The notes under the pieces: model-generated
Seen by the model: only the letters and a program-made list of their open reading frames with translations
Told to the model about the DNA's origin: nothing
Database searches by the model: none
Assembly (NCBI GenBank): GCA_043821285.1
Contig: JBDRCZ010000058.1
Span: 18,699 to 82,698, forward strand
Source of the DNA: Candidatus Omnitrophota bacterium
Lineage (GTDB): Bacteria > Omnitrophota > Gorgyraeia > B26-G9 > JBDRCZ01
Direction: 5' to 3'
Length of the DNA: 64,000 nucleotides
Shown: positions 1 to 17,554 of the stretch, in pieces
How the letters are laid out: each line of letters opens with the position of its first letter
How positions within the stretch are numbered: the stretch's first letter is position 1
Position numbers and translations under genes: made by a program

Positions 1-3000
1 AGCTAGCCGGTGGTTGTGCTTCTATCATGCGCTGGCGAAATTCCGCAATTTTACGTTCTATCACTTCAACCTCACCAGGACCAACCGAATCAAATAATAA
101 TAATAATTCCACCGGATCATTAAATGTCAGCGGTACGCTTATTTCTATAATCCGTTCATCCTGGTCGGAAACTCTTTCTAATAGATGAGGAAATCTGCGA
201 TCATCCTCTTTAAAAACTTTTACTCTAAACGGAGCGCGGTTCGCCTTATAGCTCCATCTCCTATTTTCCAAAAACACAATTGCTTCATCAATAAGTTCTG
301 AAACATCAGTAACCTGGGCAGGTTCGGAAACAGGTGAATAAAACTGTAACAAGTCCTCCATAAGTTTTCTTACCTCTTTAGTACGATAGCCACGTTGGTA
401 CCAATCATAAACCTCTTCACTATGTCCCTTCTTCAGTAAAGCTACCTTAATATTTCTAGTATCCTCAATTGATTCAATAATGCCAATGCTGTCAGGTCCA
501 GTAGATGGTGGCCTAATTAAAATATCGCCCTTATCTAAAGGGATTTGTTCTCTGGTTTCCGTCCTACCTTTTGAATACCAAACCAAAATATCATTTAATA
601 CTCCACTGCCTTCTAAAATCTCTAATGCCTCATATATAATACCACTTCTATCGCTATTTTCTAATAAAGCATCTACCTCTTTATCATTTTCCAAATCTAT
701 TGAACGTAACGCTTGATCTGCCCTGTTTAATATCTCTAATACTTCCTTTTCAAGCTCATCCAAAGACTCTAATGGTATTGTAGGTTCCGTAAAAAACTCT
801 TGCATTCTCCTATTTCCACTACTATCGACAAACCTCCCGTCTATCACTCTTTTTATCTCAATCCTTTCCCCTGTTCTATCTCGCATAGTAATACCAACAC
901 GCTTGTTGCCTGGCCAATCTACAGATGCGTCTTCATAATATATAATATTCCCTGGTTTATCTCTCTGATCCTCTGGCAGAGTCTTTGCCTTTCCTCTTAA
1001 AATTCTTAATCTATCATTTAACTCCTCTCTTAAGCTATCTCGCAGATCATCATCTCCAGCAATATAATCTCTTACTAATTTGCTCAAGGGAAGCAGTCTG
1101 CTTAAGCTTAATGTTCTTAAGCTATCTATATCTGTTACCCCTAACATCTGTAAATATACGATTAGTTCTTCTCCTGTAGGATTTGGATTTATTCTTCCGG
1201 CAGTTATCAGCAATAGTGAGCGGACACTGTTATAAGGAGTCTCTCTGGCAAGAGCGAGTATATTAAAAATATTTTCTTTAGCTGTTTGTGCATCAATCCC
1301 ACCTGATTGCACCAGATTATCTAATTTTCTCGCTGCAGATAAGGCCGGTTGTTCACCACTTGAGCTAATCTGGTCAAATAATGCTTGTAGTTGTGGGTCA
1401 TCAGTCTTAATCTCTGGAACATCCCTAAACTCAACAGCAGGTTCAGGTATAACTGGTTCTGGCTCAAACACCTTAGCTGGCACAGCAATCCAAAACATTG
1501 CCCCTTCCTCATCCTGCGAAAAATTCATCTCTCCACCAAGTGCCTCAAGCTCCATTTTTGCTTTTAGTATCCCCTGCAAAGAACGCTCGGTCTTGCCCCG
1601 CATCTCTTCTTCATCACTAAACTCCTGCTCAAATATCGCTCTTTGGATCTTACGTGTGAGCTTTGATGTATATCTTACCCCTATGACAAAAACTGGTTCC
1701 CCTTCCTGTTCCTGCCACCCCCACTCAATACTAACCCCCTTATCCTCTCCCATTAATTCTAAATATTGCTCTATCTGTTCTCTTAATTCAGCGGCTCTTA
1801 AATTATCAAACCTTTCTATGTGCCGCTTATCTTGCTCCCAGATAAAACTCTCCACATTCGCCATCTTCGCTACCCGCACTGCTTCGCTTACCCACTCTCT
1901 AACTAATCCCTGAAGGCGTTCTGTATACTCTTCTGCCTCCGCACTCGTTAGTGTCCTCTCTTCCTCTCCTGTTATCGGCACCCTCAATTCCTCACCCAGA
2001 TTATCGTCAATCTCTTGGATTTTTGTACTTGTTTCCCGGTCCCTCCTTTGAAAATTATTATTTGTTGTCGTGTACCTATCTAATCGGCTAAATTCTATGT
2101 CTTTACCTTCTTGCGGCTTTGCCTCTGGACGCGGGTCAAGGATTTCTTGCATATCAATTAGGGTGAGTTCTTCTCCCTCGCGCCGGTTAAGCTCCTCTAC
2201 CATATGGGCTAAAAGTACCTGCTCATACGCACTCAGGGCTATTCCATCTTCCTCTTGTTCTTGCTTAGCCCTTACTTCAAATACCATCCGCTCTCCTGCT
2301 CTTTTAACTATAATTGTGTCCCCTTCGTTTATCTCCCTCCATTGCTTCTGCCTAAATTCTATTAATGGCTTGCTAAATAACCTCTCCACTGCCCGGCCCA
2401 ATGGCCGCGCTCCATACTCTGCCTGATATCCCTTCTCAACCAAAAGACCATACACTGCTTCTTTTTCTTCTTTATTTTCCCCAATTTCAATATTTATCCT
2501 CTGCCGCGCCTCAAATAATCCAATCTCTACATTAAGAAAAATTTCTACCACTGCTTGCAGTAGTTCATGGGTTAAGGGGTTAAATATTACCTGCGCATCT
2601 ATCCGGTTTAAAAATTCCGGACGGAAGAATCCTTTAAATGACTCCTTTACCATCTCAGTCATCTTTTCTTTGAATGCGGCTATCCTTTCCGGGTCACGGC
2701 TCTTTATTACATCATCCATCTCTGGATATAGCGAATACACTGTCAGTACTTCTCCCCAGATCTCAACCTTACCCTCCATGCCGATATTTGAAGTAAGAAC
2801 AATTACCGCATCCTTAAGACTTACGGTCCTCCCCTGGTTAGATGTAACTCTTCCATCTTCTAATATCTGCAGCAGTATATCAAGTATCTGCTTGTCCCCT
2901 TTATCTATTTCATCAAATACAATCACAGTATTCGGATAATCTTTAAGCTGTTCAATTAATGCCCCTTCCCCGCCATTTTCATCGTATCCCACAAATCCCG

Positions 3001-6000
3001 GTGGTGCACCAATGAGTTTAGATAGATCTTCCCGCGTCTTATACTCACTCATGTTTATTATTTTTAGGTTCATCCCTAAAATCTCTGCTAATGTCTTGGC
3101 CAACTGTGTCTTCCCTACTCCTGTTGGCCCGGCAAAAATAAATGATCCGATTGGCTGATGCCGCGGCTTTAGCCCCCCCTTGGCAATCTTTACGGCATTA
3201 CAAATCGCCTCTATCGCCTCCTCTTGCCCCACGATCCTGGCCTTTAAAATCTGATCTAACTTTAATATCTTCTCTTTTTCACTCCCTTCCATTAATCCTA
3301 CATCTATCTCTACAACATTCTCTTTCCTTTCCTTTTCCTCAACATAAGATAGGGTATCTCTTCCTTCGATTATCGGTAAACTGGGTTTTGCGAATTCTTC
3401 TTTTAACTCCTCTAACTCCCGGATAAATCCGATTATCTCCTCATTATTTTGTAAATCTTCTACTGTTAAATCACCCTCTGAGTTATCAATAAGTTCCTCT
3501 AATTCAAATCGCAAATTGCCCATAATCTCGAAAATCTTACCTTGTATTCTGTTTTTTGACTGTTGCTTGTTTACAAAGAGTCCATTAAACCAGTCGTTCA
3601 ATGTTTCTAATGACGGCTGTCCGGCAAAATATCTCTCCCATAACCGCACTGCCATATCTATCGCGGCAAAGCTTATCTCGATTGCCTCTCCTTCTCCATC
3701 ATTATAATTCCTCTCAATAGTCTCTCTCATAAATAACGTAAATGTCTCAAATATATCCTCCCGCTCTAATTCTCCAACCTCAACCAATGAAAAATATTTA
3801 TCAAAATACTCCTCTGCGGCAATATTGTTCCTCGAGGTTGTCATGATAAACGATATCGTTGTCAGCCCCTTAAACATCCTTAAGAAAAACCCTAATAAAA
3901 ATGGATTTACCCGTAAACGTCTCAGTTCTTCCTTTACATCATCAAAATCCATAACAATTATTGTATTCAGTCCCTTCTCTTTTCCATCTTCTTCAATTGC
4001 ATCTACTACCTCTTTAAGCCGTGCCTCAAAATATCCAATTAATGAAAAATAATTCCTCAGTGACCCCAGTCTTAACCGTAATATCCGCGTGTTCTCAAAT
4101 CCCGCAATATCCCCCTCCCGCGCCCGCTTGGCAAAACTATCTACTATGCTCTTCTGCATTAGTAAAGACTCACTTAAGATAAATGGATAATTTCGCCGCT
4201 TTTGTTTCACTATCCGGCTAATATCTACCACTGGATCCAGCGGTGGATGGATATCCTCTACCAGCCCTTCGGCTGACCTAATCGTTAGATGTTCAAACAT
4301 CTCATTTATCTCTTTCTCTGCCTGTTCTATCTTCTCTATCTGCGCCTGTTTTGCTGCGGCAAATGCCTGCTCAGCCTCTTTATTCCGGCCCTGCTTTCTA
4401 AGTTCATATGTTTGTTTGTTCTGCTCCGCAGTTTCGATTAAGCGACGTTCATTACTAATCTCTAGATTTATCGCCTGCTTTTCTCCATCTCTTGTTGCAC
4501 TACCTAAGTCCCGCTCATACTTCCTGATATTTACCTGATATCCCTGGATTCTCTTATCCAATTCTCCTATCCGCTGTTCAATCTCTGCCTGATCCAACTC
4601 CTCCATTTCTTCATCTAAATCTTCCGGCCGGGGTAGGGTGATCATAAAACGCTTTCTGAATTCTTCAAGTGCCTCTTCTCTTTCTTCTCCTGCCTCTGCT
4701 GGCTCTACTACCTCTACTAGCTCTTCTGTCTCTGCTCCCTCTGCTGTCCCTTCTATCTCTTTTGTCTCTGCTATTTCTGGTAAATTAAGCAGGCTGCGCA
4801 CTAACCCTTCATCAAATTCTCCTCCCTGGAAAAAATTCTCTTCCAGCCTACTAATAACCTCTTCATGCTCATATAACCTCTTCTCTCCCTCGTCCTTTAC
4901 TGTATCAAACATTACTCGCCCTTCTTCAATATCCGCAAATATCTTGTCCCCTTTTTCAAATTTATCCCCTAATATTGCCGCGGAAAGCGGTGCCAGCACT
5001 ATGCGTTTTAACGCCCGGATCATTGGCCTGGCTCCATTTACTACATCATATCCTTGCCTGATTACTTCTTCCCTTAGCTCCTCTGATAATTCCAGCCCGC
5101 GATAACCTGCTTCCCCTAGTAACCCTTCATACTCGCGGATCTTTATCTCTAATATCTTCTCTAATGATTCTTTGGATAAAGGTTCAAATGTAATAATCTT
5201 TTCTAGGCCTATTCTCCCGATAAACTCTGGACGAAATTCATTCCTTACAGACTGCTCTAATTTCCTCCTGATTGCCCCCCGAATATCCTCCAGCAGGTAT
5301 TCCCGCTGCGCTTCCATGTCTTCACTACTAACCATGTCATCTAATGTTTTAAAACGATTAAGTAAATTGTCAAATTCTATCCCACTTTCTTCTTGCATCC
5401 TCTCAAGCTGTAATTGGACAATAGCACGTCTGGCTTTAAGTTCCCTCTCTACCAAAGCTCTAAGCTCCCTGTTTTCCTGTTCATCGGTTCGCACTTGTTT
5501 TACCTCAGCCAGAACCTTATATAGACTTACGATATCTAACCCGTTATAATTCTGCCAATTACTTATTTTCTGCTCAATCTTCTGAAGCAAAAAAATTCGC
5601 ATTTCCCCTTCATCTTCTACATCTAATACCGCCTGTATCTCTGCCGCGCTTTCAGCCAGATAATGCGCCTCTTCTTTATCATGGCCAATATGCTCTATTA
5701 ATTTATATATATGATTTCGTGATTTTAGTAGATCTCCCTTTAACTGCTCATCTGTTAACTTATTTATGTCCTCTTTTAGCTGCTGGAGATCCTCTATTAT
5801 CTCTTTTACCCGTGCCTCTTCTGCCCGGTCCGCGCTCGCAGTCTGGCTAAATCCCAGGTTTGAGGTCATAATGATAATTGTATTCTTAAAGTTCACTGCC
5901 CGGCCATGATTGTCTTCAAGTATCCCATCATTTAGTATCGAAAGAAATAGATCAAAAACATCGGGATATGCTTTCTCAATCTCATCAAATAATATAACAC

Positions 6001-9000
6001 TGTATGGCCGCCTCAGTACATGGTCTGTTAACTGCCCCCCGGCTTCATATCCAATATATCCCGGTGGCGCGCCAATTAGTTTGTAATGGTCCATTCTATT
6101 CATATATTCTGACATATCAAATCGTGCCATTGCCTCTTCATTGCCAAACATATGACGCGCTATTGATTTGCTAAGCTCTGTCTTGCCTACACCTGTTGGA
6201 CCTACAAAAATAAATACCCCGATTGGCTGGTTCTCTCTTACTCCACGTATCTGGCGCAGGCTAAATGCATCATATGTTGCTGTTATTGCCGGGTCTTGGC
6301 CAATAAGCATCCCTTGGATTGATTCTACGTAATTTGCTAATTTTTCATCCTCTGTCGTTGTGATTATATAAAGCGGTACCCCGCTATCTTCAGCAATCTG
6401 TTCGACTATATCATCTAATGTGATCTCCCATTTGCCTTGCTCTTTTATTCTATTAATAAATCTATCGTGCTCTTCTATTTGATTTGTAATTGCCTCATAT
6501 TCACTCAATTTTCGGTCAATCACCTCTTTGAAAAAATCAACCTCTGCCTGCTCACCGCCTAAAAGTGCTCTTTTAAGTCCTTCCGCTGCTTTGAGTAGTT
6601 TTTCCTCGTGGTCTATTAGTTCACTGTTTAGCCTTTCTAATCTTAATAATTTGTCCGTAATAATCTTATCGATTATCTCTTGCAGTTTGTTCGGCGGCGT
6701 ACCCGAGGGGTAATATTTCTCGGCTAATTTTATGGCGTCATCAATTGTCCTCCTTGATATGTTTAAACTTACTCCTTCCGGGAATATCCCTGCGTAAATA
6801 TCCGTGACCCTGAGCCTAAACTGGCGCATGATCCTGCGCATATCATACGGTGCTGGAGAAGTAAGTTCACATTTCTCAAACTTGCTCTCTAATCTTCGAT
6901 CATTTTCAAATAATCCCGCATATACCTGTTTATTCGCTATCCCCAATACGGATATGTTTTCGGCATTAAGTGCCGCCTCCAATAATAAATATAGTCCGCC
7001 AATCATTTTCCCCTTGATCTCTCCTATACTATAAAAATCCTGAAAATTAAATACTAATACTACCTGCTCCCTCCAGTAAACATTCTTTATTGAATTTATC
7101 AATTTTGCCACTTCTTCTTCAAGCTGCCCAGGCATAGCTAATTTATCTACAAAACGCGCGGTGTTAAATTCTAAAAACTTTGCCCCTTGAAGATTCGTCA
7201 ATGTGGTAACTTCCTGCTCTGACCTTACAACAATTGCCTCTAATAACCCCTCTCCTACTTCCGGGTCACCAACAATAACAACATTATTCCTTCCCCTTAC
7301 TGCAATTTGATTATTTATATTTCCTGCATCGCGCTCTAAATAATATGTATCATCTATCTTCCCTGCCCTGGCTAACTCATTAAGGTCAATTGTGTATTCT
7401 CGTATATAATCCTCTTCACTCCCTTCCTCAAATCCTGGTAACCCCACGCCTCCTTGTCCCATCACCAAGGCTACTGCTATTCCCTCAACCAAATTATCTA
7501 CCGGCATATCTACCCCAAATGCAAGATTTAATACTACACGTAGTATGCCAAACCCCAGTAATAGCCAAGCTAATGAATGTAAATGCGTCCCGCCCAAGTG
7601 GTGGTGTTGATCACTCCAGCCCCGTTGGTGGATAGCTCGATGCAGTAATTCATTTAAATATCTAATCGTCCTTGTATCATGACCAGGGCCATTTGTATCT
7701 TCCCCAGCTATTGCTGGAAGATCTTCTTCTCCTTTATTGTAAGCCGCTCTTAGCTTATCTCTCACCCCCGGCTTATTCAGTGCTGCTCTTATTGCTTCTT
7801 CATTGTCATCAGAAAGTGTTGTTTGAAGGTCACCTATAAGTGAATTGACAAATTCTTCAAAACTTTTATCCTTTTTTCCGCTCTTTAGGTATCGCGTAAG
7901 CGATTGTATGGTTATGTCTCGTATATCGTGTTTCGTTTGATCATTATCAACGTCTGTCTCCAAATCTTCATCTTCTCCTAATTCCTCAGAAAATTCATCT
8001 AAAAGTTCGCCCATCTCTTCTACTTGTGCTACTGTCCGTTCGGCATGCGCCTCTACTTCTTCTTCACTCAGTTCTTTATTTTTTAGCTCTTGTGCCTTTT
8101 GTTTTCTAAGCTCTTCCCCATAAAACATCCGGTCACATGGCAGCATTACCACCGGTATCATCCCTATGGGATTGCCTGAGATAAATAAGGCTAATCCTAA
8201 TATACTTCCCACCACTATTGCCAGTTGATTAATCCGGCTCTGCTGTTTGAAACCTGATCGTAAACCGCTAATTGTTACTTCAATCCTGCTTTTATAATTA
8301 TTCAAAAATATCTTAATATTACCCGCTATGTTCTTACTCCATTGCCAAACCCTTGGGACAATTTGTATAGATATATTTCTTGCACCAATAGCCTGAAGTT
8401 CCCAAAGCAAGGGAAGGACATCTACAAAGAGAGCTCTATCAAAATCAGTAGCTACCAAAATCGAGGACGCATCCGCTCCGGAATTAGCATAGAGTACACG
8501 TCTTGAAACACCTTGAGGATTTACAATGTTTTTTATTGCCGTATATTTGGCCATCTGTGCTTCATCTAATCTTTCCGTCTCTCCCAACTGCGTATTGGGA
8601 TTCGGCATAACAGTTACGCTTACATCTGCGGCTTCTTCGATAAAAAAACTGAGATCTTGTACAATCCTTTCATTAATTTTGAAAATAATCTCTCCGGATA
8701 ACATTCTATCTAAAATCACGTGTGTGATACCTGGGTTATCTTTTTCAAGCAGTGCTAATAACTCATTAAGCGTTATTCCCCCTGTTATAATTATTTCCTT
8801 TTCTATTGGCTGTTTTCCTAAGTCTTTCTTTTCTGACACAAAAGCACATATGGCACCATGAAAGGATAGCCTAATTTTGGTGGTATGTTTTTTTGTTATA
8901 TCACCAGTATTACCACACAACCTGTTAAAAACTTCCATATCTTCAGCACTATCTAAATTTATAGCTGGCGCAAGGTGGGTAGTTAAACCTCTCAGGTTGC

Positions 9001-9094
9001 CCCCGGCTGCCCAGGCAATGTCTAAACACAGAAAGGCGTTGATTAATATAACCGCGATTAGTTTAAAACAAATTTTATGTTTTATCTTATTCAT
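1..9094 (-). CDS. Giant secreted or membrane-anchored AAA+ protein, more than 3031 aa (3' end beyond window). It has an N-terminal signal peptide, a degenerate ClpB-NBD1-like domain, long coiled coils and two complete ClpB/Hsp104-type NBD2 plus C-terminal-domain modules.
   Basis: Hand translation of the minus strand in the frame whose codon first bases sit at + positions congruent to 1 mod 3. Start is ATG at 9094-9092, with GGTGA 4 nt upstream and an in-frame TGA just 5' of it. N-terminus is MNKIKHKICFKLIAVILINAFLCLDIAWAAGG (signal peptide). No stop was found down to position 1. The frame was checked directly at 3360-1 and at the motif regions. Around 6290-5840 it reads GQDPAITATYDAFSLRQIRGVRENQPIGVFIFVGPTGVGKTELSKS...MSEYMNRMDHYKLIGAPPGYIGYEAGGQLT...VILFDEIEKAYPDVFDLFLSILNDG. 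Around 3240-2400 it reads GQEEAIEAICNAVKIAKGGLKPRHQPIGSFIFAGPTGVGKTQLAK...LIGAPPGFVGYDENG...VIVFDEIDK...YGARPLGRAVERL. An upstream RGRNNVVIVGDPEVGEG resembles a ClpB NBD1 Walker A but lacks the Lys. Absence from the ORF track is explained by the missing stop codon inside the window. Confidence 0.8.
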   Translation of the reverse strand, partial: MNKIKHKICFKLIAVILINAFLCLDIAWAAGGNLRGLTTHLAPAINLDSAEDMEVFNRLCGNTGDITKKHTTKIRLSFHGAICAFVSEKKDLGKQPIEKEIIITGGITLNELLALLEKDNPGITHVILDRMLSGEIIFKINERIVQDLSFFIEEAADVSVTVMPNPNTQLGETERLDEAQMAKYTAIKNIVNPQGVSRRVLYANSGADASSILVATDFDRALFVDVLPLLWELQAIGARNISIQIVPRVWQWSKNIAGNIKIFLNNYKSRIEVTISGLRSGFKQQSRINQLAIVVGSILGLALFISGNPIGMIPVVMLPCDRMFYGEELRKQKAQELKNKELSEEEVEAHAERTVAQVEEMGELLDEFSEELGEDEDLETDVDNDQTKHDIRDITIQSLTRYLKSGKKDKSFEEFVNSLIGDLQTTLSDDNEEAIRAALNKPGVRDKLRAAYNKGEEDLPAIAGEDTNGPGHDTRTIRYLNELLHRAIHQRGWSDQHHHLGGTHLHSLAWLLLGFGILRVVLNLAFGVDMPVDNLVEGIAVALVMGQGGVGLPGFEEGSEEDYIREYTIDLNELARAGKIDDTYYLERDAGNINNQIAVRGRNNVVIVGDPEVGEGLLEAIVVRSEQEVTTLTNLQGAKFLEFNTARFVDKLAMPGQLEEEVAKLINSIKNVYWREQVVLVFNFQDFYSIGEIKGKMIGGLYLLLEAALNAENISVLGIANKQVYAGLFENDRRLESKFEKCELTSPAPYDMRRIMRQFRLRVTDIYAGIFPEGVSLNISRRTIDDAIKLAEKYYPSGTPPNKLQEIIDKIITDKLLRLERLNSELIDHEEKLLKAAEGLKRALLGGEQAEVDFFKEVIDRKLSEYEAITNQIEEHDRFINRIKEQGKWEITLDDIVEQIAEDSGVPLYIITTTEDEKLANYVESIQGMLIGQDPAITATYDAFSLRQIRGVRENQPIGVFIFVGPTGVGKTELSKSIARHMFGNEEAMARFDMSEYMNRMDHYKLIGAPPGYIGYEAGGQLTDHVLRRPYSVILFDEIEKAYPDVFDLFLSILNDGILEDNHGRAVNFKNTIIIMTSNLGFSQTASADRAEEARVKEIIEDLQQLKEDINKLTDEQLKGDLLKSRNHIYKLIEHIGHDKEEAHYLAESAAEIQAVLDVEDEGEMRIFLLQKIEQKISNWQNYNGLDIVSLYKVLAEVKQVRTDEQENRELRALVERELKARRAIVQLQLERMQEESGIEFDNLLNRFKTLDDMVSSEDMEAQREYLLEDIRGAIRRKLEQSVRNEFRPEFIGRIGLEKIITFEPLSKESLEKILEIKIREYEGLLGEAGYRGLELSEELREEVIRQGYDVVNGARPMIRALKRIVLAPLSAAILGDKFEKGDKIFADIEEGRVMFDTVKDEGEKRLYEHEEVISRLEENFFQGGEFDEGLVRSLLNLPEIAETKEIEGTAEGAETEELVEVVEPAEAGEEREEALEEFRKRFMITLPRPEDLDEEMEELDQAEIEQRIGELDKRIQGYQVNIRKYERDLGSATRDGEKQAINLEISNERRLIETAEQNKQTYELRKQGRNKEAEQAFAAAKQAQIEKIEQAEKEINEMFEHLTIRSAEGLVEDIHPPLDPVVDISRIVKQKRRNYPFILSESLLMQKSIVDSFAKRAREGDIAGFENTRILRLRLGSLRNYFSLIGYFEARLKEVVDAIEEDGKEKGLNTIIVMDFDDVKEELRRLRVNPFLLGFFLRMFKGLTTISFIMTTSRNNIAAEEYFDKYFSLVEVGELEREDIFETFTLFMRETIERNYNDGEGEAIEISFAAIDMAVRLWERYFAGQPSLETLNDWFNGLFVNKQQSKNRIQGKIFEIMGNLRFELEELIDNSEGDLTVEDLQNNEEIIGFIRELEELKEEFAKPSLPIIEGRDTLSYVEEKERKENVVEIDVGLMEGSEKEKILKLDQILKARIVGQEEAIEAICNAVKIAKGGLKPRHQPIGSFIFAGPTGVGKTQLAKTLAEILGMNLKIINMSEYKTREDLSKLIGAPPGFVGYDENGGEGALIEQLKDYPNTVIVFDEIDKGDKQILDILLQILEDGRVTSNQGRTVSLKDAVIVLTSNIGMEGKVEIWGEVLTVYSLYPEMDDVIKSRDPERIAAFKEKMTEMVKESFKGFFRPEFLNRIDAQVIFNPLTHELLQAVVEIFLNVEIGLFEARQRINIEIGENKEEKEAVYGLLVEKGYQAEYGARPLGRAVERLFSKPLIEFRQKQWREINEGDTIIVKRAGERMVFEVRAKQEQEEDGIALSAYEQVLLAHMVEELNRREGEELTLIDMQEILDPRPEAKPQEGKDIEFSRLDRYTTTNNNFQRRDRETSTKIQEIDDNLGEELRVPITGEEERTLTSAEAEEYTERLQGLVREWVSEAVRVAKMANVESFIWEQDKRHIERFDNLRAAELREQIEQYLELMGEDKGVSIEWGWQEQEGEPVFVIGVRYTSKLTRKIQRAIFEQEFSDEEEMRGKTERSLQGILKAKMELEALGGEMNFSQDEEGAMFWIAVPAKVFEPEPVIPEPAVEFRDVPEIKTDDPQLQALFDQISSSGEQPALSAARKLDNLVQSGGIDAQTAKENIFNILALARETPYNSVRSLLLITAGRINPNPTGEELIVYLQMLGVTDIDSLRTLSLSRLLPLSKLVRDYIAGDDDLRDSLREELNDRLRILRGKAKTLPEDQRDKPGNIIYYEDASVDWPGNKRVGITMRDRTGERIEIKRVIDGRFVDSSGNRRMQEFFTEPTIPLESLDELEKEVLEILNRADQALRSIDLENDKEVDALLENSDRSGIIYEALEILEGSGVLNDILVWYSKGRTETREQIPLDKGDILIRPPSTGPDSIGIIESIEDTRNIKVALLKKGHSEEVYDWYQRGYRTKEVRKLMEDLLQFYSPVSEPAQVTDVSELIDEAIVFLENRRWSYKANRAPFRVKVFKEDDRRFPHLLERVSDQDERIIEISVPLTFNDPVELLLLFDSVGPGEVEVIERKIAEFRQRMIEAQPPAS

Positions 9095-9224: not shown

Positions 9225-9253
9225 TAAGTATACCATATATTTCGGATTTGTCA
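9225..9253 (-). promoter_or_regulatory. Putative sigma70-like promoter for the giant gene (TTGACA-N17-ATACTT read on the minus strand)
   Basis: Minus-strand reading of 9253-9225 gives TTGACAaatccgaaatatatggtATACTT, about 130 nt upstream of the ATG at 9094 in an AT-rich leader. Confidence 0.25.
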
Positions 9254-9336
9254 AGGGTTGGACGGGAATTTTTTTGAAAAATACATTCTTGGAGGGAGGG
9301 TAAATTTCGTGCGTTATGTGGTTGCGTTTAGGGTTT

Positions 9337-10782
9337 TCATAATGCGTTTGAGACTATCAAGCGCCGCGCCTCAAGACGCAATTTTTTTAACCTGTTTCTA
9401 CTGATAGTCTCTAAATAGCAGCGCACAATCGGCTCGGTCCCGGAAAACCGGTACATGACCCAGCTCTGATCTTGAAGAATAAATTTAAAACCGTCAATTG
9501 TATTTATTTCTTTTACCGGTAGATTGCAAAATTCAACCGGCGGGGCGGTTTTTAGTTTGTTCAGCAGTTTTAATTTTATTTTTTCGGTAAGTGCGATATC
9601 AATCCGGTCATTGTAAAAATATCCATATTTTTTGTAAAGGTTATTTAGTATTTTTCGGATGCTTTGCCCGCGGATGGCAAGCATTTCCGCAATCAATAGA
9701 CACGCAAGTATCCCGTCTTTTTCCGGAACATGCCCATGAATGGAAAGTCCGCCGGATTCTTCTCCGCCAATAAGACACTCTCCCCCGGCTAATACCTCTC
9801 CAATATATTTAAATCCCACCGGGGTTTCTATTACCCGCATGCCATTATACCCGGCAATACCGTCAATCATGGAAGTGGTCGATAAAGTGCGCGCTACGGT
9901 TTTCATCTTTCCCCTGGTTTTAATCAAATGCTCAAATAATAGCGCAAGCACCTGATTTGCGTTGATGTAGGTACCGTCCCTGTCAATTATCCCAAACCGG
10001 TCAGCATCACCATCGCAGGCCAGACCAAGGTGCGCCCGGCTGCGCCTTAGTTCATGGATCATTGTTTTGATATATGCCGGCTTGGGCTCAGGTGGGTTTC
10101 CGCCAAAAGCAGGATTTAAATCATTATTTAAAACTACAATGTTTTTTGTACATTTTTGTAAAATATTGTCAAGATAGCCGCGGCAGGTGCCATGCATGCA
10201 GTCAATAATAATTTTTAGTTTTGCCTTTTTCAGGGCCGCAATATCGACCAATTGCCTCAACCGCTTAAGATAGTCCCGGCTTGCATCAAATACGATAATT
10301 GGACGCGGTTTGTTCTGGGGAGGTGATTTTTGGTTAAAATTTTTAGTGATTATTTTTTCAATCTCATCAGTTGCTTTTTTGGGCGCCGGGCCGCCGTAGG
10401 CCGGAGAAAATTTTATACCGTTATATTCCGGCGGATTATGACTGGCGGTAAAATTTATACCGCCATCTGCATTTTTTTTTATTATCTGATAGGCGATAAC
10501 CGGTGTGGGCACATCCCGGTCAGCTAAAAATACATCAATATTCTCCGCCGCTAAAATTTCCGCGGTAAACCGGGCGCATTCTTTGGAAAGAAATCTGGTA
10601 TCATAGCCAACTACTATTTTCGGCCTTATATTTTCAGCCTGGTTTTTTTCTTTTTTCTGCGCCTTTACATATTTTCCGATTGCCGATATAACTCTTGCCA
10701 CATTTTCAAAGGTAAATTCTTCAGCAATAACTGCCCGCCAGCCGGATGTGCCAAATTTTATCGCCATCTTCTTATCCTTCAT
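9337..10782 (-). CDS. Phosphoglucomutase/phosphomannomutase (alpha-D-phosphohexomutase family)
   Basis: 481-aa ORF with GTSGWRA and the phosphoserine loop TASHNPPEYNGIKF. AAGGA ribosome-binding site upstream. Confidence 0.85.
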   Translation of the reverse strand: MKDKKMAIKFGTSGWRAVIAEEFTFENVARVISAIGKYVKAQKKEKNQAENIRPKIVVGYDTRFLSKECARFTAEILAAENIDVFLADRDVPTPVIAYQIIKKNADGGINFTASHNPPEYNGIKFSPAYGGPAPKKATDEIEKIITKNFNQKSPPQNKPRPIIVFDASRDYLKRLRQLVDIAALKKAKLKIIIDCMHGTCRGYLDNILQKCTKNIVVLNNDLNPAFGGNPPEPKPAYIKTMIHELRRSRAHLGLACDGDADRFGIIDRDGTYINANQVLALLFEHLIKTRGKMKTVARTLSTTSMIDGIAGYNGMRVIETPVGFKYIGEVLAGGECLIGGEESGGLSIHGHVPEKDGILACLLIAEMLAIRGQSIRKILNNLYKKYGYFYNDRIDIALTEKIKLKLLNKLKTAPPVEFCNLPVKEINTIDGFKFILQDQSWVMYRFSGTEPIVRCYLETISRNRLKKLRLEARRLIVSNAL

Positions 10783-10865
10783 AAAAAAAATTCCTTGCCG
10801 CCGCTTATCCCGGTAGCAAGACCGCAGGGTATTACGCCGGTTGTATGATGCTACGCATCACCAAA

Positions 10866-10911
10866 ATCTTTTTTATCCATTTAAAAACCTATCGTGTTCA
10901 AGCTTTCCCTC
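10866..10911 (+). repeat. Intergenic mosaic repeat family, copy A (ATCTTTTTTATCCATTTAAAAACC...TTCAAGCTTTCCCTC). The hairpin part is replaced by TGATGCtacGCATCA.
   Basis: Aligns with copies at 20755, 36222, 36651, 38941 and 53624. Confidence 0.6.
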
Positions 10912-10968
10912 AATAATGTCACCCGGTAAACCAGACTATAGGAAATAGGCAAGTTTAACCGTAATGAT

Positions 10969-11577
10969 TTAGTTTTTAATTAACACCCTCCGGCCGGAAA
11001 TCTTCAACTTTCCTTTTACAAACAAGTCAATTGTCTGCGGAAGCAATTGATGTTCTAAAACATGTATTTTTTTGGCAAGTGTTTCTCTGGTGTCATTGTC
11101 TCTTACCTCAACCGGCGACTGTAAAATAATCGGACCGTGGTCCATCTGCTCATCGACAAAATGCACGGTTACCCCGGTAATTTTCGCCCCATCACAGAGT
11201 GCCGCCCCAATGCCGTCTGTACCCTTAAACGCCGGCAGGAGTGCCGGGTGGATATTTATTATCTTATTACGAAACGCACGCACAAAATAAGGACTGATCA
11301 TCCGCATAAACCCGGCAAGCACCACCATGTCAATTTTATGATGCTTAAGCTCTTTGACAACAGACTTATCATAATCAGTGCGGCTTTGATCTAGAGATGC
11401 AGCAATACATACTGCAGGAATGTTATGTTTTTCTGCCCGTTTTAAGACATAGGCATCTTGACGGTCTGAAATAACTAATGCTACTTTTGCCCCTTTGATC
11501 TTTTTACGCTTAACCGCCTGAATAATTGCCGCAAGATTTGAACCAAACCCTGAGGCAAGAACCGCTATTCTTTTCAT
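10969..11577 (-). CDS. purN: Phosphoribosylglycinamide formyltransferase
   Basis: 202 aa. MKRIAVLASGFGSNLAAII ... HPALLPAFKG matches the PurN fold. 4-bp overlap with the upstream gene. Confidence 0.85.
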   Translation of the reverse strand: MKRIAVLASGFGSNLAAIIQAVKRKKIKGAKVALVISDRQDAYVLKRAEKHNIPAVCIAASLDQSRTDYDKSVVKELKHHKIDMVVLAGFMRMISPYFVRAFRNKIINIHPALLPAFKGTDGIGAALCDGAKITGVTVHFVDEQMDHGPIILQSPVEVRDNDTRETLAKKIHVLEHQLLPQTIDLFVKGKLKISGRRVLIKN

Positions 11578-12854
11578 GCCTTTGCGGCCTTTGCCAGACG
11601 CGGCATAATCTCTACGCCTTTAATTGTACCAATACTGCCTGCCTGACAACTCTTTTCCGAAAAGTTTATTATCCCGTCTGATTTAAAACCCGGACCGCAG
11701 ATTAATAACGGCACCGGATCCGCGGAATGTGCCTTGATTAAACAACTGGTCGCATGATCTGCGGTAACACAGATGATTGTCTGATCAAGATTTATTTCCT
11801 TAAGTAAAGGTCTAAAAAAATACCGGTCAATCGCTTCAATTGATTCAAGCTTTTTCTGATAATCGCCGTCATGCGCGGGTTCATCCGGGCCTTTAATATG
11901 AATGTATAGCCCGTCAAATTCAGACTTCGTGGTTATTACCTTTTTTGCCCAGTTAAGGTAATCTTCATCTATTTTTCCGGTCTTTGGCGGAGAGGCAACT
12001 TCCCTCATCCCGGTTAACATCGCAATGCCCTTTTCTACCGGCATCTCGACGAAACAGCCAAAATTTAAATCAAATAATTCTTTCATTGTAGGAAATTTTG
12101 GCAGGTGATCTCCGGCATCACGGGTCAAAATTACATTGGCTATCCGTTTATCTAATGCATCACGTTCACGATTTACGCCGGAATTTTCTAATATTTTTCT
12201 GCTTTTTTTAATAAACTCATTGGTCAAATGTGCCGCATCTTTTGCCGCTTTACTGTGATCAAGCGGCCGGCACTCTAATAATACGTTATCAAATTTTTCC
12301 AGCGCTATGCCAAATACGCCTTTTTTGCCATAAGCCGGATCGGTATTAGAAACATTTGCCGATAAATTTCCCTGCGCACGTAACACGAGCACCCCGCGGT
12401 GGCCAATTGTACTTTTAAACTCAAAACTTGCCCCGGGAATTGATTTAAGCTTTACTTTTGCATTAAGTTCCTCAGCCAGTTCCACAGCTTCCGGTGTAGA
12501 TAAATCCCGGCCAACTCTGCGGTCAAGTATTTCATTACTGCCTTTGCCCAAGGTGGCAAAGTTAACCCTATAGGCTAAATCTCCATCATTAATTTTGAGT
12601 CCCTCGGCATGGGACTCAAGCGGCCCTCGCCCGGTATAATACTTATCTGCATCATATCCAATAATACTAATCACGGCAACATCTGACTCCGGTGCGACTT
12701 TCTCCCCAACCGTATACACACTCCCCAGCTGTCCGCAACTCGCCAAATAATCTAAATCCGGTGTCCTGGCTGCTTCAAGTGGTGTTCTGTTGTCCAGCTC
12801 AGGTATTGAGGAATCCCCTAATCCGTCAAGCACCACGTAAATAATCTTATACAT
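11574..12854 (-). CDS. apgM: Cofactor-independent phosphoglycerate mutase, archaeal type
   Basis: 426 aa, MYKIIYVVLDGLGD N-terminus, alkaline-phosphatase-superfamily metal-ligand pattern. Size and motifs typical of ApgM. Confidence 0.75.
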   Translation of the reverse strand: MYKIIYVVLDGLGDSSIPELDNRTPLEAARTPDLDYLASCGQLGSVYTVGEKVAPESDVAVISIIGYDADKYYTGRGPLESHAEGLKINDGDLAYRVNFATLGKGSNEILDRRVGRDLSTPEAVELAEELNAKVKLKSIPGASFEFKSTIGHRGVLVLRAQGNLSANVSNTDPAYGKKGVFGIALEKFDNVLLECRPLDHSKAAKDAAHLTNEFIKKSRKILENSGVNRERDALDKRIANVILTRDAGDHLPKFPTMKELFDLNFGCFVEMPVEKGIAMLTGMREVASPPKTGKIDEDYLNWAKKVITTKSEFDGLYIHIKGPDEPAHDGDYQKKLESIEAIDRYFFRPLLKEINLDQTIICVTADHATSCLIKAHSADPVPLLICGPGFKSDGIINFSEKSCQAGSIGTIKGVEIMPRLAKAAKA

Positions 12855-12879
12855 AAACTATTACCCCCCTGTAGATTAA

Positions 12880-12891
12880 GGTTCTGTCAAA
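12880..12891 (-). promoter_or_regulatory. TTTGACAGAACC motif (minus-strand sense), 25 nt upstream of the apgM ATG
   Basis: + strand GGTTCTGTCAAA. One of 4 near-identical copies at a fixed distance from start codons. Confidence 0.4.
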
Positions 12892-12920
12892 TGCATAATA
12901 TCCATGTTCGCTCGTAGTGA

Positions 12921-13304
12921 TTATCTCTTTTTCTGATTTTTAAGTAACACCGCATCGATTTTTGCTTTCAAATCAGTATAATCGACCGGCTTGTTTAAAT
13001 AATCACTTACCCCTAAATCCAATGCCTCCAGATATGTTTCCCATTCGCCGTATCCGGTAATAATAATAACCGGAAGATCCAGCCGTTTACCCGATAATTT
13101 CTTAAGCAGGCCAATCGCCGTATCATCCGGCAGCTTTAAATCCGCAACCATTAAATCATATTTTTGTTTTTCTAAATTATCAATTGCCGCCTCGATCGTA
13201 CCTGTTTCCGTGGCTAAAAATCCATCCTCCACCAGTAATTTTGCCAGGTATTTTCTAAATACCACATCATCTTCAACCAGCAATATTCTATATTTTTTTG
13301 CCAT
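12921..13304 (-). CDS. Single-domain response regulator (CheY-like receiver)
   Basis: ILLVEDD...DLMVADLKLPD receiver motifs. The start was moved to ATG 13304 (MAKKYRILLVEDD) because AAGGAGG lies 7 nt upstream. The ORF-track start at 13328 would cover the ribosome-binding site. Confidence 0.8.
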   Translation of the reverse strand: MAKKYRILLVEDDVVFRKYLAKLLVEDGFLATETGTIEAAIDNLEKQKYDLMVADLKLPDDTAIGLLKKLSGKRLDLPVIIITGYGEWETYLEALDLGVSDYLNKPVDYTDLKAKIDAVLLKNQKKR

Positions 13305-13361
13305 ACGCACACCTCCTTTAGTCCACAAGTTTTGCCAAAAATCCCGCTTTTTTTCTCATCT

Positions 13362-14051
13362 CTATTTAACCCGCCGCCCAAAGACGATAACAAATTCTCC
13401 CCGGGGCTTGTTGCGGCTAAAGTAATCTATTAAAACTGATACTTTATCTCTTAACACCTGTTCGAATTTTTTTGTCAGTTCCCGGCAAACGGCAATATCG
13501 ATATCCCCAAGCGCCTGATAAATAATCGACAGCGTCTTAAGCAGGCGGTGCGGCGATTCGTAACAAATGATCGTCTCTCCTCTTTGATGATATTCGATTA
13601 TTTTTTCTCTTTTTTTGTTTGTCTTAACCGGCAAAAAACCGCAGAAACTAAACCGGTCCGTGGCAAATCCTGATACCACTAACGCGACCGCATGTGCTAC
13701 CGCACCCGGAATTACTTCTACTTTGATATTTCTATTTATCGCTTCCTTAATCAAATGCACGCCCGGATCAGATATCCCCGGCATGCCGGCATCCGATACC
13801 AAAGCAATATTTTTCCCATCTTTAAGGTAAGCGATTAAAACTTCCTCTCTCGATAGTCGGTTGTATTGATAATAGCTAATGGTATGCTTTTTTATGCCAA
13901 AGTACTTAAGAAGTATACCTGTACGCCGGGTATCTTCACAGGCAATAATATCAACTGATTTTAATACTTCGATCGCACGAAAGGTTATATCATTAATATT
14001 ACCAATCGGTGTTGCGACAACAAATAATACACCTGTTTCTTTCTCTAACAT
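13362..14051 (-). CDS. rsmI: 16S rRNA (cytidine1402-2'-O)-methyltransferase
   Basis: VVATPIGNINDITFRAIEVLKSVDIIACEDTRRTG is a tetrapyrrole-methylase-fold RsmI signature. Confidence 0.85.
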   Translation of the reverse strand: MLEKETGVLFVVATPIGNINDITFRAIEVLKSVDIIACEDTRRTGILLKYFGIKKHTISYYQYNRLSREEVLIAYLKDGKNIALVSDAGMPGISDPGVHLIKEAINRNIKVEVIPGAVAHAVALVVSGFATDRFSFCGFLPVKTNKKREKIIEYHQRGETIICYESPHRLLKTLSIIYQALGDIDIAVCRELTKKFEQVLRDKVSVLIDYFSRNKPRGEFVIVFGRRVK

Positions 14052-14142
14052 GTATCTCTATTATAATCACCAACTTTTCTTTTGTCAATGCCGCTTATCG
14101 AAATCTTATCTCCAAAGGTTACGCAGCTTTTTACTGTTCTTA

Positions 14143-15027
14143 TTAGATCCCTATTCTTTTCAAAAAAACTCTATTTTTTCGCCAGTTTTTTTCCACCTTT
14201 ACCCAGAGATCAAGATATACCTTTTGCCCAAAATAGCCTTCAAGTTTAATCCGGCTTTTTTCACCAATACTCTTAAGTCTCATCCCCCGCTGGCCAATTA
14301 CGATTGCCTTCTGTGATGAGCGTTCAACATAAATTGTTGCTCTGATATAAAGAAGATCTTTCGCTTCTCTTCTTTTAAACTCTTCGACGACTACGGCAAC
14401 GGCATGCGGAACCTCTTCCTGCAACTGCCAGAGCGCCTCCTCACGGATTATTTCAGAAGCAATAAAACGATCATCTTTATCGGTTATCTGATCTATGGGA
14501 AAATACCTCGGACCAGGCGGTAAATATTTTTTAATTACTCCCGTGACAAAAGATACATCTTCTCGATTAAGCGCGGAAAGCGGCAGATGCTCGTCAAATT
14601 CACATATTTTTTTACATTCCTCGATTATTTTTAAAATCTTTGACTTTTGTATCAAATCAATCTTATTTATCGCCAATAGTTTATTCTGCTTCCAGTCTTT
14701 TATTTTTTTAAATAAATTTATATCATCTGAAGTTACCCCTCTTGCGTCGATAAACAATAATACAATATCCGCCTCACCCCCGGCATCCCAGGCCGCCCGA
14801 ACCATTTTACGTCCTAACTCATGCTGCGGCTTGTGGATCCCCGGGGTGTCCATAAAAATAATCTGGCAGCCGCGGTCATTATAAATACCTAAAATCCTAT
14901 TTCTGGTTGTCTCTGGCCGGTGACAGACCGCGGCAATGTGCTGTTCTAAAATATTATTTAAAAACGTTGATTTTCCGGTATTTGGACGGCCAATTATTGC
15001 CACATAACCGGATTTTATATCCTGCAT
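14143..15027 (-). CDS. era: GTPase Era
   Basis: GYVAIIGRPNTGKSTFLN G1 motif, DTPG, NKID, C-terminal KH domain. 294 aa. Confidence 0.9.
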   Translation of the reverse strand: MQDIKSGYVAIIGRPNTGKSTFLNNILEQHIAAVCHRPETTRNRILGIYNDRGCQIIFMDTPGIHKPQHELGRKMVRAAWDAGGEADIVLLFIDARGVTSDDINLFKKIKDWKQNKLLAINKIDLIQKSKILKIIEECKKICEFDEHLPLSALNREDVSFVTGVIKKYLPPGPRYFPIDQITDKDDRFIASEIIREEALWQLQEEVPHAVAVVVEEFKRREAKDLLYIRATIYVERSSQKAIVIGQRGMRLKSIGEKSRIKLEGYFGQKVYLDLWVKVEKNWRKNRVFLKRIGI

Positions 15028-15030
15028 CTT

Positions 15031-16620
15031 CTAACGTTTTTCCTTATAATTCGTCACGACAATCCCCGGACCGCCGGTAACCGGACATTTATATTCACAT
15101 ATTCCGCAGCCAATACAAGCCTCTTCATTAACATACGGTCTTTTTACGATTTTTGTCTCTTTTTCTTCAGTTATAACTTCTACCTCGGTATATGATATTG
15201 CTTTATCCGCCACCGGACAGTGTTCTTCACATTTTATGCAATTTTCATTTTTATACCACGGCAGGCAATGGTCTTTATCAAAAAACGCCGTGCCAATTTT
15301 TGAAAGACGGCGCTGTTCCTTTGTCAAATCTTTTATTGCGCCGGTTGGACAAACCTGTCCACAGCGCGTACAAACATCATCGCAATAACCAACCTGATAA
15401 TTTAACCGCGGTGTCCAAAAACCAACCAGCCCGCTTTCCAGAAAACTTGGCTGGATGACCTTTGTCGGGCAGACTTTCATGCATTGTCCGCAGCGAATAC
15501 ATTTATTTATAAACCGTTCCTCACGATCCGCACCCGGCGGACGGATCAAAAATTTTGAATTAGGGATCCATTTTACCGAGCGCATGTATCCGACAAATAA
15601 GCCGCTGCCGGCTGCCGTCAAAAGAAACTGCCGGCGTGAGGGCAGAAAATTTGACCTGCGCAAAATACCCGGCGGCATGCTCAATCCAAAAAACATCTTT
15701 TTCTTCCGGCAAATGTTAACACATTCAAAACAACGTATGCACTCTTTAGCCTGGTAGCTGTCTTTTACCGCATTAAAATTTTTGACCTGCGCGTGACAAT
15801 GCGTCAAACAAATTGCACATTCATCGCAATCTTCTCTTATTTTCCTTCGCAAAGGACTAAACTCCGAACAAATACCCAGCAGCGCCCCTAAAGGACAAAT
15901 ATTCTTACACCAAAAGCGGTGTCCAAAAATACTCAACCCAAATATAAAAACCGTGAACCCCAAAATAATTGCTGAAGTACTATAGCTGGTCATCTCTAAT
16001 GAAAAGAGGCTGTTTTCAAAATTAAAAATAAAGCTATTGTAAGCATCCCGCAAAAAAATTGTCTGCGCAAGAAGGATTTTCCCTTTGAACGTAAAATTCA
16101 AAACCGAATTAAAAATACCCAGGATCAAATTGACAATTGCCAGAAATGCCGGCAGTATTGCGGTAATAAAAAACCGCGTAATTATCGCCAAAGGATCAAA
16201 ATAGCCTGCGGTTTGTACTCCGAACACGGCCGTAATCAATATAAACAACAGGATTAGATATTTTATCCGGCGGTATCCAACCGCCAGCGGTTTTTTACGA
16301 ATCATTCCTTTACGGAACAAACGCCGTTCGGCAAAATCGATTAATGAACCCAGCGGACATGCCCAGCCGCAAAAAAATCTGCCAAAAAATAAAGTAAACG
16401 TTAATAAAACCACGGATGAGATAAATGCCGGGGGAAGCTGCCATGTCGCCAGTCCCGCGGAAAACATGATCAAGGGGTCAATCTTGAGTATAACACTGAC
16501 CGGGTAACGAATAACAAATTTATCGATTAGTGCATCATATCTGCCCTCGGTAAGCAATATCAATACCAGAAAGGCGATAAAAAACAATAATTGAAAAACG
16601 CGACGGAAAGGTCTTAACAT
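15031..16620 (-). CDS. Membrane-bound polyferredoxin (NapH/MauN-like 4Fe-4S protein)
   Basis: N-terminal transmembrane segments with CGWACPLG and CKNICPLG motifs typical of NapH/MauN, plus several C-terminal CxxCxxCxxxCP ferredoxin motifs. Confidence 0.65.
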   Translation of the reverse strand: MLRPFRRVFQLLFFIAFLVLILLTEGRYDALIDKFVIRYPVSVILKIDPLIMFSAGLATWQLPPAFISSVVLLTFTLFFGRFFCGWACPLGSLIDFAERRLFRKGMIRKKPLAVGYRRIKYLILLFILITAVFGVQTAGYFDPLAIITRFFITAILPAFLAIVNLILGIFNSVLNFTFKGKILLAQTIFLRDAYNSFIFNFENSLFSLEMTSYSTSAIILGFTVFIFGLSIFGHRFWCKNICPLGALLGICSEFSPLRRKIREDCDECAICLTHCHAQVKNFNAVKDSYQAKECIRCFECVNICRKKKMFFGLSMPPGILRRSNFLPSRRQFLLTAAGSGLFVGYMRSVKWIPNSKFLIRPPGADREERFINKCIRCGQCMKVCPTKVIQPSFLESGLVGFWTPRLNYQVGYCDDVCTRCGQVCPTGAIKDLTKEQRRLSKIGTAFFDKDHCLPWYKNENCIKCEEHCPVADKAISYTEVEVITEEKETKIVKRPYVNEEACIGCGICEYKCPVTGGPGIVVTNYKEKR

Positions 16621-17540: not shown

Positions 17541-17542
17541 TC

Positions 17543-17554
17543 GGTTCTGTCAAA
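17543..17554 (-). promoter_or_regulatory. TTTGACAGAACC motif 23 nt upstream of the DUF362 ATG
   Basis: + strand GGTTCTGTCAAA. Confidence 0.4.

Follow-up and report, generated by a model that had tools for sequence, protein, structure and literature searches.

Two tandem ClpB-like units, each with a degenerate first and an active-type second nucleotide-binding domain, in a giant, probably membrane-tethered protein of Candidatus Omnitrophota

We have analysed a 64,000-nucleotide stretch of DNA (the window) from a Candidatus Omnitrophota bacterium (contig JBDRCZ010000058.1, positions 18,699 to 82,698), at the left end of which the minus strand carries the first 61% of a giant gene whose product, here called the window protein, contains two Clp/Hsp100-type ATPase units in tandem. 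Translated exactly from the ATG at 9094, the frame runs to base 2 through 3031 codons without a single stop, and 9094 is the first possible start because an in-frame stop lies at 9100-9098, two codons 5' of this ATG. The remaining two minus-strand frames contain ∼23-38 stops per 300 codons throughout 1-9094; if ∼10% of codons are stops, the probability that 3031 codons stay open is ∼0.9^3031, or ∼1e-139, so that the frame cannot have arisen by chance. Codon-position GC is uniform along the gene, with GC1 exceeding GC2 and GC3 and no signs of a frameshift. An earlier reading by a model that saw only the letters and a list of open reading frames (ORFs), hereafter the sequence-only reading, had proposed a stop-free minus-strand frame of at least 3031 codons from ATG 9094 opposed by only short plus-strand ORFs; exact computation agreed on both counts, finding neither an in-frame stop nor a frameshift between 9094 and 1 and no opposing ORF longer than 155 aa. 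A candidate sigma-70-like promoter was picked up by a consensus scan on the same strand at 9227..9254, ∼130 nt 5' of the start codon (TTGACA-16-TATACT, 11/12 matches, with a TG-extended -10).

A database search identified the complete product, a protein of 4955 aa that is 100% identical across the window part, in agreement with the proposal of a single giant gene. As the full protein is of this length, the gene extends ∼5.8 kb past the left window edge. The gene is hidden only in the ORF list, since NCBI already holds its product as MFH1777257.1, 'MAG: AAA family ATPase [Candidatus Omnitrophota bacterium]', where MAG stands for metagenome-assembled genome, from a 91,280-nt contig. The 90%-identity cluster of the protein has one member, from one contig.

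All features of the giant gene described below are on the minus strand; relatives are numbered P0002 and upwards and loci L001 to L006. The N-terminus (aa 1-29; 9008..9094, start codon 9092-9094) has the signal-peptide-like features anticipated by the sequence-only reading: by eye, a positive n-region (MNKIKHK), an h-region (I8-A28) with a Kyte-Doolittle peak of 2.4-2.6 and an AxA-type site (AWA|AGG), features which do not distinguish a cleaved signal from a signal anchor. Comparable N-termini are found in P0002, P0010, P0016 and P0018. It is followed by an orphan domain (aa 30-286; 8237..9007) which, from its hydropathy context, is probably extracytoplasmic. A search with the N-terminal 290 aa found zero homologues, and the domain is not part of the BLASTP alignment with P0002. 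A ThiS/beta-grasp identity considered for aa 96-150 was dropped, as the match (E 6.7e-4, 20.6 bits) fell below the 22.5-bit Pfam cut-off.

The alignment with P0002 begins around the first putative transmembrane (TM) helix, TM1 (aa 287-319; 8138..8236; hydropathy 2.0-2.4). A family-specific helical domain follows (aa 320-460; 7715..8137), delineated by family alignment, which opens at the invariant Cys320 (PCDRMFY) and includes the invariant His389 (KHDIR...KSGKKDK). A hydrophobic segment immediately precedes the Cys motif in 13/16 family members, those without it being P0004, P0006 and P0010. AlphaFold2 confidently predicts aa 320-460 as an all-helical domain (pLDDT 81-96), apparently a novel one; Foldseek comparison of the N-module model with the PDB returned no significant match (best E 0.49). 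The N-module is completed by a linker with a His cluster, HHH (aa 497-499), and a hydrophobic hairpin (aa 504-555), together at 7430..7714 and identified by hydropathy and alignment. The hairpin, made up of a pair of short hydrophobic segments with a 6-residue turn between them, ends ∼10 aa before the first AAA+ unit. Speculatively, the invariant Cys, the His and the His cluster might form a metal site at the membrane face. Cys320 was also considered as a lipobox Cys, a possibility rejected on account of unsuitable residues at positions -1 to -3 (P, I, G, V, W).

The first ATPase unit, unit a, begins with a degenerate nucleotide-binding domain 1 (pseudo-NBD1a; aa 558-830; 6605..7423), recognised by a PDB sequence search (E 4e-13 to Hsp104 residues 156-432) and a weak AAA_lid_9 match. 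Its Walker A sequence, GDPEVGEG at aa 609, has lost both Lys and Thr, its Walker B sequence, NFQD, lacks DE, and the pore-loop Tyr and Arg fingers are absent; the loss of the Walker A Lys had been spotted in the sequence-only reading. A helical segment occupies the position of the ClpB M domain (aa 831-930; 6305..6604), as judged from position and sequence. It is followed by an active-type second domain, NBD2a (aa 931-1400; 4895..6304; Pfam AAA_2 1.4e-54, ClpB_D2-small 1.5e-14), with the Walker A motif GPTGVGKT (965), pore loop GAPPGYIG (1008), Walker B motif VILFDE (1033), sensor-1 TSN (1077), Arg finger FRPEFIGR (1287), D2-small domain (1306-1385) and sensor-2 GARP (1354). A helical insertion of ∼195 aa (1091-1285) separates sensor-1 from the Arg finger and is also present in P0002, P0003, P0005 and others. 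An acidic helical linker with a net charge of -28 (aa 1401-1600; 4295..4894), defined from sequence and without any Pfam match, joins the two units.

Unit b repeats this order. Pseudo-NBD1b (aa 1601-1850; 3545..4294) was recognised by a ClpB NBD1 match (E 6e-6, to Thermus thermophilus ClpB residues 161-260), by alignment and from its motifs: the Walker A position reads SESLLMQKS and Walker B DFDD, and pore Tyr and Arg finger are absent. It is also the best-conserved family-specific stretch (NPFLLGFFLRMFKG..ISFIMTTS). A second helical segment at the M-domain position (aa 1851-1950; 3245..3544), lying within the alignment of the two units, leads to active-type NBD2b with its D2-small domain (aa 1951-2270; 2285..3244; Pfam AAA_2 7.9e-44, ClpB_D2-small 9.1e-8), whose motifs are GPTGVGKT (1989), GAPPGFVG (2029), VIVFDE (2057), TSN (2101), FRPEFLNR (2157) and GARP (2228). 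Units a and b are 32% identical over 320 aligned columns from the NBD1 lid through NBD2. Because a second pseudo-NBD1 precedes NBD2b and the units align, the protein contains two whole ClpB-like units in tandem, and the motifs show each unit to be composed, at the level of sequence, of a pseudo-NBD1, a helical segment and an NBD2 with all catalytic and pore-loop motifs. The sequence-only reading had recognised two full NBD2 plus C-terminal modules and the motifs GPTGVGKT (965, 1989), GAPPGY/GAPPGF (1008, 2029) and GARP (1354, 2228), all of which were recovered, the Pfam search returning AAA_2 twice and ClpB_D2-small twice. It had, however, counted one NBD1 and two NBD2s, overlooking the second pseudo-NBD1 (aa ∼1601-1850), and had described ∼900 aa of coiled coil or unknown sequence between the NBD2 modules; this stretch measures ∼560 aa and comprises the acidic linker, the degenerate second NBD1 and the helical segment. 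The same search for Clp_N gave no match in the whole protein or its segments, even at E≤1, although an ordinary ClpC scanned likewise as a control gives Clp_N at 2e-24.

Downstream of unit b, a long helix leads to a conserved domain (aa ∼2385-2545; 1460..1942) resembling the catalytic domain of histidine kinases (HKs), a Bergerat fold, as indicated by alignment, AlphaFold2 (pLDDT 87.7, pTM 0.80) and Foldseek. Every top PDB match was an HK catalytic (CA) domain (LvrB, RetS, ChpT, CheA P4; E 2e-4 to 5e-3), with moderate TM-scores of 0.3-0.47 and with the degenerate CA domains of RetS and ChpT among the matches; a profile search against PDB sequences was weak (E 0.19). There is no Pfam HATPase_c match to the domain, and the N-box Asn, G1 DxGxG and G2 GxGxG do not appear in the family alignments. 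The model is read as a pseudo-CA domain preceded by the long helix. The remainder is a variable C-terminal extension (aa 2546-3031 within the window, 2..1459, and to aa 4955 outside it) which does not align with P0002 and has no Pfam match at aa 2546-3031; beyond the window it contains HEAT repeats (∼3100-3400), a WD40 propeller (∼4140-4340) and TPR-like repeats (∼4770-4830). By eye, a short motif 'GD(I/S)(I/V)(L/V)...' recurs in the extension (aa ∼2860-2900, ∼3690 and ∼3860) and in those of P0002 and P0012, and may be the signature of a small beta-barrel resembling SH3.

The family was defined by querying 1.84 billion representative proteins exhaustively with aa 277-950 in phmmer. Sixteen clusters match the N-module together with pseudo-NBD1a (E 2e-139 to 5e-17), below which scores fall abruptly to ordinary Clp proteins matching the NBD1 part only (∼70 bits). 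Members range from 619 to 7819 aa, several being partial. A collinear core of ∼2270 aa is common to the long members (P0002, P0003, P0005, P0010, P0012, P0013, P0014 and P0017) in the order TM helix, invariant Cys, helical domain, His cluster, hairpin, two successive pairs of pseudo-NBD1 and NBD2, and HK-like domain; P0002 aligns with aa 277-2547 of the window protein at 38% identity. Each complete member has exactly two active-type NBD2s, in which all ATP-hydrolysis motifs are kept, and two NBD1-like domains without Walker A GK[TS], Walker B DE, pore-loop Tyr or Arg fingers. Since these motifs are lost in every member, the degeneration of NBD1 must be ancient, and the good conservation of the pseudo-domains themselves (e.g. 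NPFxLGYFLRxFKG..SFxMTTS) suggests selection to preserve some role other than catalysis. NBD2a and NBD2b form separate clades in a neighbour-joining tree which, with ∼150 positions, is indicative only. They are 40% identical to each other and each is 46% identical to ordinary Clp NBD2s, which together suggests that the two units are old and not redundant.

These data bear on whether the protein is an ordinary cytosolic ClpB-type disaggregase fused to unrelated domains, with no membrane-directed role. The nearest relatives of every AAA+ part are indeed ClpB, Hsp104, ClpC and ClpA, long Omnitrophota proteins are commonly multi-domain mosaics, and the N- and C-terminal extensions differ widely among relatives. 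Canonical ClpB requires an active NBD1 and its N-terminal and M domains for DnaK-coupled disaggregation, whereas Clp_N is absent here and both NBD1s are dead in all members. The ∼2270-aa core, moreover, is collinear at 38% identity and beyond and includes the N-module, hairpin and HK-like domain, and the TIGR03346 ClpB equivalog model matches in five separate stretches totalling 623.5 bits, far below its cut-off of 1232.1. Simple fusion of a ClpB disaggregase is consequently unlikely.

Outside the core the relatives are diverse. In P0005, P0007 and P0016 a Peptidase_M50 domain (site-2 protease, S2P) with HExxH stands directly before the invariant Cys. N-terminal extensions vary in general, and C-terminal extensions contain NHL, WD40, HEAT or GNAT domains, the GNAT domains of P0002 lying downstream of the ATPases with no strong TM segment in between. 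P0003 has ∼5500 aa of multi-TM, enzyme-like sequence upstream of the core and ends right after the HK-like domain. This largest relative (NCBI MFC1675042.1, locus L001; 7819 aa, partial), in which the ClpB-like cassette is C-terminal, also contains a near-identical internal duplication of ∼700 aa, 'QALGLAYSPQDAVTDCVAERDGGDAGYMQAVGSKN...' being present twice, and in P0009 (locus L003) the N-module, comprising acidic helical domain, His cluster and hairpin, occurs twice in tandem before pseudo-NBD1a.

A pattern scan with a single pseudo-NBD1b motif across 185,579 representative genomes, one per GTDB species, returned six loci: four from Candidatus Omnitrophota, one from a genome binned as Actinomycetota and one false positive. 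The last, L006 (Cloacimonadota), was rejected, since its Clp_N, UVR and active NBD1 mark it as an ordinary ClpC. The Actinomycetota-binned locus, L004 (CAZOWS010000305.1, 6.7 kb, 'uncultured Actinomycetota'), holds a member with 42% identity to pseudo-NBD1b, and as all other confirmed loci are from Omnitrophota, mis-binning seems likely. Locus L002 contains a complete member of 4369 aa with stops at both ends and unrelated genes beside it.

This bounded ORF disposes of the alternatives that several adjacent genes were read as one or that the gene is an assembly chimera; homologues that occurred as several genes separated by stops would have pointed to the former, and relatives instead keep the collinear core in single ORFs. 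An artefact of these kinds, or a decaying pseudogene, might be suspected of a sequence that comes from a metagenome-assembled genome and has a 90%-identity cluster to itself. The frame is nevertheless free of stops and frameshifts and uniform in codon-position composition, nine independent long relatives have the same domain order in single ORFs, and motif conservation is consistent with purifying selection. An artefact is therefore barely credible, and we regard a single real gene of the described architecture as almost certain.

The location of the ATPases was judged from hydropathy and logic. In the window protein, counting the signal segment, TM1 and the two segments of the hairpin places the ATPases in the cytoplasm. 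Family-wide conservation of the NBD2 ATP-hydrolysis motifs, together with the GNAT domains of P0002, indicates that the bulk of the protein is most simply cytoplasmic, as bacteria are not known to have a periplasmic ATP pool and GNAT domains are acetyl-CoA-dependent. In the M50-fused relatives the core comes straight after the final TM segment of the protease, and the C-terminus of SpoIVFB-type S2Ps is cytoplasmic, an arrangement which was counted toward the same placement. We consider it probable, with reasonable confidence, that the protein is cytoplasmic and membrane-tethered rather than exported; most simply, only aa ∼30-286 would be outside the cell and everything after aa 555 would be cytoplasmic.

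The sequence-only reading had envisaged a secreted or periplasmic remodelling machine, in which the whole ATPase part would be exported. The Sec-signal-like N-terminus is compatible with export, as is P0010, in which no TM segment beyond the signal-like N-terminus is detectable ahead of the ATPases, and the ATPases would be placed outside if the hairpin at 504-555 were a single TM segment. In addition, by prediction 39% of the long proteins of Omnitrophota combine a signal peptide with TM helices (10.64898/2026.06.07.730766). Since in P0005 the hairpin has only weak hydrophobicity, short of the TM threshold, and in P0010 it is missing, it is unlikely to be a single, odd-numbered membrane crossing that sets the side of a ∼2000-aa module. 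The segments counted in the window protein give cytoplasmic ATPases, the Walker A and B, sensor-1/2, Arg-finger and pore-loop motifs of both NBD2s are kept in all complete members, and in P0002 the GNAT domains are contiguous with the ATPases. Given TM1, the hairpin, the retained NBD2 motifs and the GNAT domains of a relative, export of the ATPase part is not favoured and appears distinctly unlikely.

Upstream of the giant gene, the same-strand genes at 9337-19820 encode PGM/PMM, PurN, an iPGM-like protein, a response regulator, an RsmI-like methylase, Era, a poly-ferredoxin, DUF362, an M48 peptidase and DUF4416, none of which suggests a partner. Conserved neighbours were sought across the window, L002 and L005 and none was found: PGM, PurN, apgM and similar genes are found here, GH3, GT87 and an aminotransferase in L002, and a sigma-54 activator in L005. 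The surroundings also bear on a role in conflict or defence, for example as a ClpB-like ATPase of the Dodola type (DolB) or of a candidate defence cluster, with the C-terminal WD40 and TPR repeats as sensors. PADLOC models PDC-M37B (E 4e-59) and DolB (E 1e-42) match both NBD2 regions, an RHS toxin-like gene occurs elsewhere in the window, and the C-terminal WD40/TPR repeats resemble the sensor parts of STAND-type NTPases. The PADLOC matches, however, cover generic AAA_2 only, the adjacent genes are housekeeping genes without DolA-like or other partner, and the ATPase is of Clp rather than STAND type. A defence function is accordingly very improbable.

Elsewhere in the window, a minus-strand gene at 44324-51016 encodes a 2230-aa RHS-repeat/YD-shell protein with NHL, DUF6531, CBM11 and CBM30 domains, by its look a polymorphic-toxin-like surface protein. 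Three consecutive large secreted-looking proteins are encoded at 54075-63926, also on the minus strand: a 1078-aa CBM6/CBM35/F5_F8-type-C protein with a glycosyl-hydrolase core, a 1330-aa S8 subtilase with FG-GAP, TIG and dockerin domains, and a 772-aa gingipain-like C25 peptidase with TIG and two dockerins. Enzymes with dockerins are in keeping with the surface arsenal that has been discussed in Omnitrophota. Among the few plus-strand genes is a 501-aa ORF at 41393-42898 with no Pfam match, which adjoins a HAMP-GAF-HD-GYP-type signalling protein at 39644-41110.

Taking the architecture and the predicted location together, we lean, by a modest degree, towards a full mechanistic reading in which the protein is a polypeptide-threading Clp/Hsp100-type ATPase that is tethered to the inner membrane and directed at it. 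Insertion would be Sec-dependent, leaving aa ∼30-286 outside, and the ATPase stack would be cytoplasmic, its entry (NBD1) face fastened to the inner membrane in the manner of FtsH or Msp1. As a hexamer the protein would form a four-tier channel (pseudo-D1a, D2a, pseudo-D1b, D2b). In a trimer the a and b units would instead alternate within one double ring, like Pex1/Pex6, the 200-aa linker returning from the base of NBD2a to the top of pseudo-NBD1b. The NBD2 tiers alone would burn ATP, with the pseudo-NBD1 tiers acting as structural or regulatory rings, as does D1 of Pex1/Pex6. Membrane-associated polypeptides would be pulled through the aromatic pore loops (GYIG in unit a, GFVG in unit b), and the C-terminal scaffolds (HEAT, WD40, TPR) may recruit substrates or partners. 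The presence of M50 in place of the N-terminal anchor in three relatives suggests that the cassette acts on membrane proteins, in their extraction, processing or quality control. A more tentative proposal, which we put forward as a possibility and would not ourselves bet on, is that the protein represents a new class of Hsp100 machine, a trimeric or hexameric extraction or processing motor for membrane proteins, clamped to the inner membrane through its Cys/His-bearing helical module and its hairpin and joined in some lineages to an M50 protease, that would be the Clp-clade functional counterpart of FtsH or Pex1/Pex6.

Several points weigh against the membrane-tethered threading machine. TM counts disagree for some relatives: P0004 and P0010 have a signal-like N-terminus without TM1, and in P0016 a signal-like segment is combined with six M50 segments, so that the TM parity is off. 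The topology is a prediction from hydropathy and logic. The window protein itself has neither HExxH nor an M50 match. The family is rare, with five confirmed loci in 185,579 genomes in the single-motif scan, and the neighbours are housekeeping genes that differ between loci, with no operon partner hinting at function. Finally, expression, oligomeric state, ATPase activity and substrate of the giant protein are predictions.

The Clp/Hsp100 unfoldases are among the best-studied protein machines, yet to our knowledge, and as far as the literature is searchable, a natural chain with two complete Clp units, both first rings dead and the N-domain replaced by a membrane tether has not been described. 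Targeted literature searches returned no description of a tandem pseudo-NBD1/NBD2 family in the searchable literature, in line with the view of the sequence-only reading that the protein matches no described family. If the proposed function is correct, the protein would provide a natural single-chain hetero-tandem in which to study inactive AAA+ tiers and alternating subunits in threading, would add a Clp-clade member to the machines that extract membrane proteins (FtsH, Msp1, Pex1/6, Cdc48), and would give functional access to one class of the long Omnitrophota proteins, which are otherwise opaque, in a phylum where extravagant mosaic proteins are already familiar. The fusion with a site-2 protease in some relatives hints that proteolysis within the membrane and an attached unfoldase may be linked, which can be tested. 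The arrangement, which would surprise AAA+ specialists, is experimentally tractable, although it is drawn from sequence inference and from a rare family.

Among known systems, ClpB/Hsp104 provides the best sequence matches. The order NBD1, helical middle, NBD2, D2-small is the same, occurring twice in the window protein with helix-prone ∼100-aa segments at the M-domain position of both units (by position and sequence), and the NBD2s are of the AAA_2 type, retaining every catalytic motif along with an aromatic pore loop. The window protein differs in lacking Clp_N, in having both NBD1s dead, two units per chain and a membrane-anchored N-terminus, and in adding the 195-aa NBD2a insertion, the HK-like domain and ∼2400 aa of repeats. 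In contrast to ClpA, ClpC and ClpE, no ClpP-docking (I/L/V)G(F/L) tripeptide was seen by inspection in the sensor-1 to Arg-finger interval of either unit, whereas ordinary ClpC-like matches, also by inspection, have LGF, VGF or FGF 12-15 residues after TSNxG; the 195-aa insertion of NBD2a begins at the position of the ClpP loop of ClpA/ClpC. Skd3 (human CLPB), a disaggregase of ∼700 aa with a single NBD2-type ring in the mitochondrial intermembrane space, resembles the window protein in its NBD2-only motor and in a hydrophobic membrane-associated N-terminus and interaction repeats. Skd3 lacks both a remnant of NBD1 and a tandem unit, and the two are comparable through the shared AAA_2 domain alone.

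Other long Omnitrophota proteins are described as membrane-anchored and mostly cytoplasmic, or as having an embedded SecA DEAD-like motor or an N-terminal peptidase (10.1101/2023.11.21.568195; 10.64898/2026.06.07.730766; PMC10066038). The window protein shares with them the phylum, a signal-peptide-like N-terminus and putative TM segments, and a mosaic with HEAT, WD40 and TPR repeats. The surveys cover proteins of at least 10-20 kaa (or ORFs >20 kb), a threshold below which the window protein, at 4955 aa, falls, and these papers make no mention of ClpB, AAA_2 or a tandem Hsp100 cassette.

Further machines similar in predicted operation come from other AAA+ clades. FtsH, Msp1/ATAD1 and Bcs1 likewise have an N-terminal membrane anchor right before the AAA+ domain and an entry face directed at the bilayer; they differ in having a single AAA+ tier, and FtsH has its own protease, whereas M50 is found here only in some relatives. 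For units a and b, which form separate old clades, Pex1/Pex6 may offer an analogy, with diverged subunits alternating in a double ring, a degenerate D1, an active D2 and extraction by a membrane-held complex. Pex1 and Pex6, however, are separate chains of the NSF/Cdc48 clade, whereas in the window protein the two units are fused and belong to the Clp clade.

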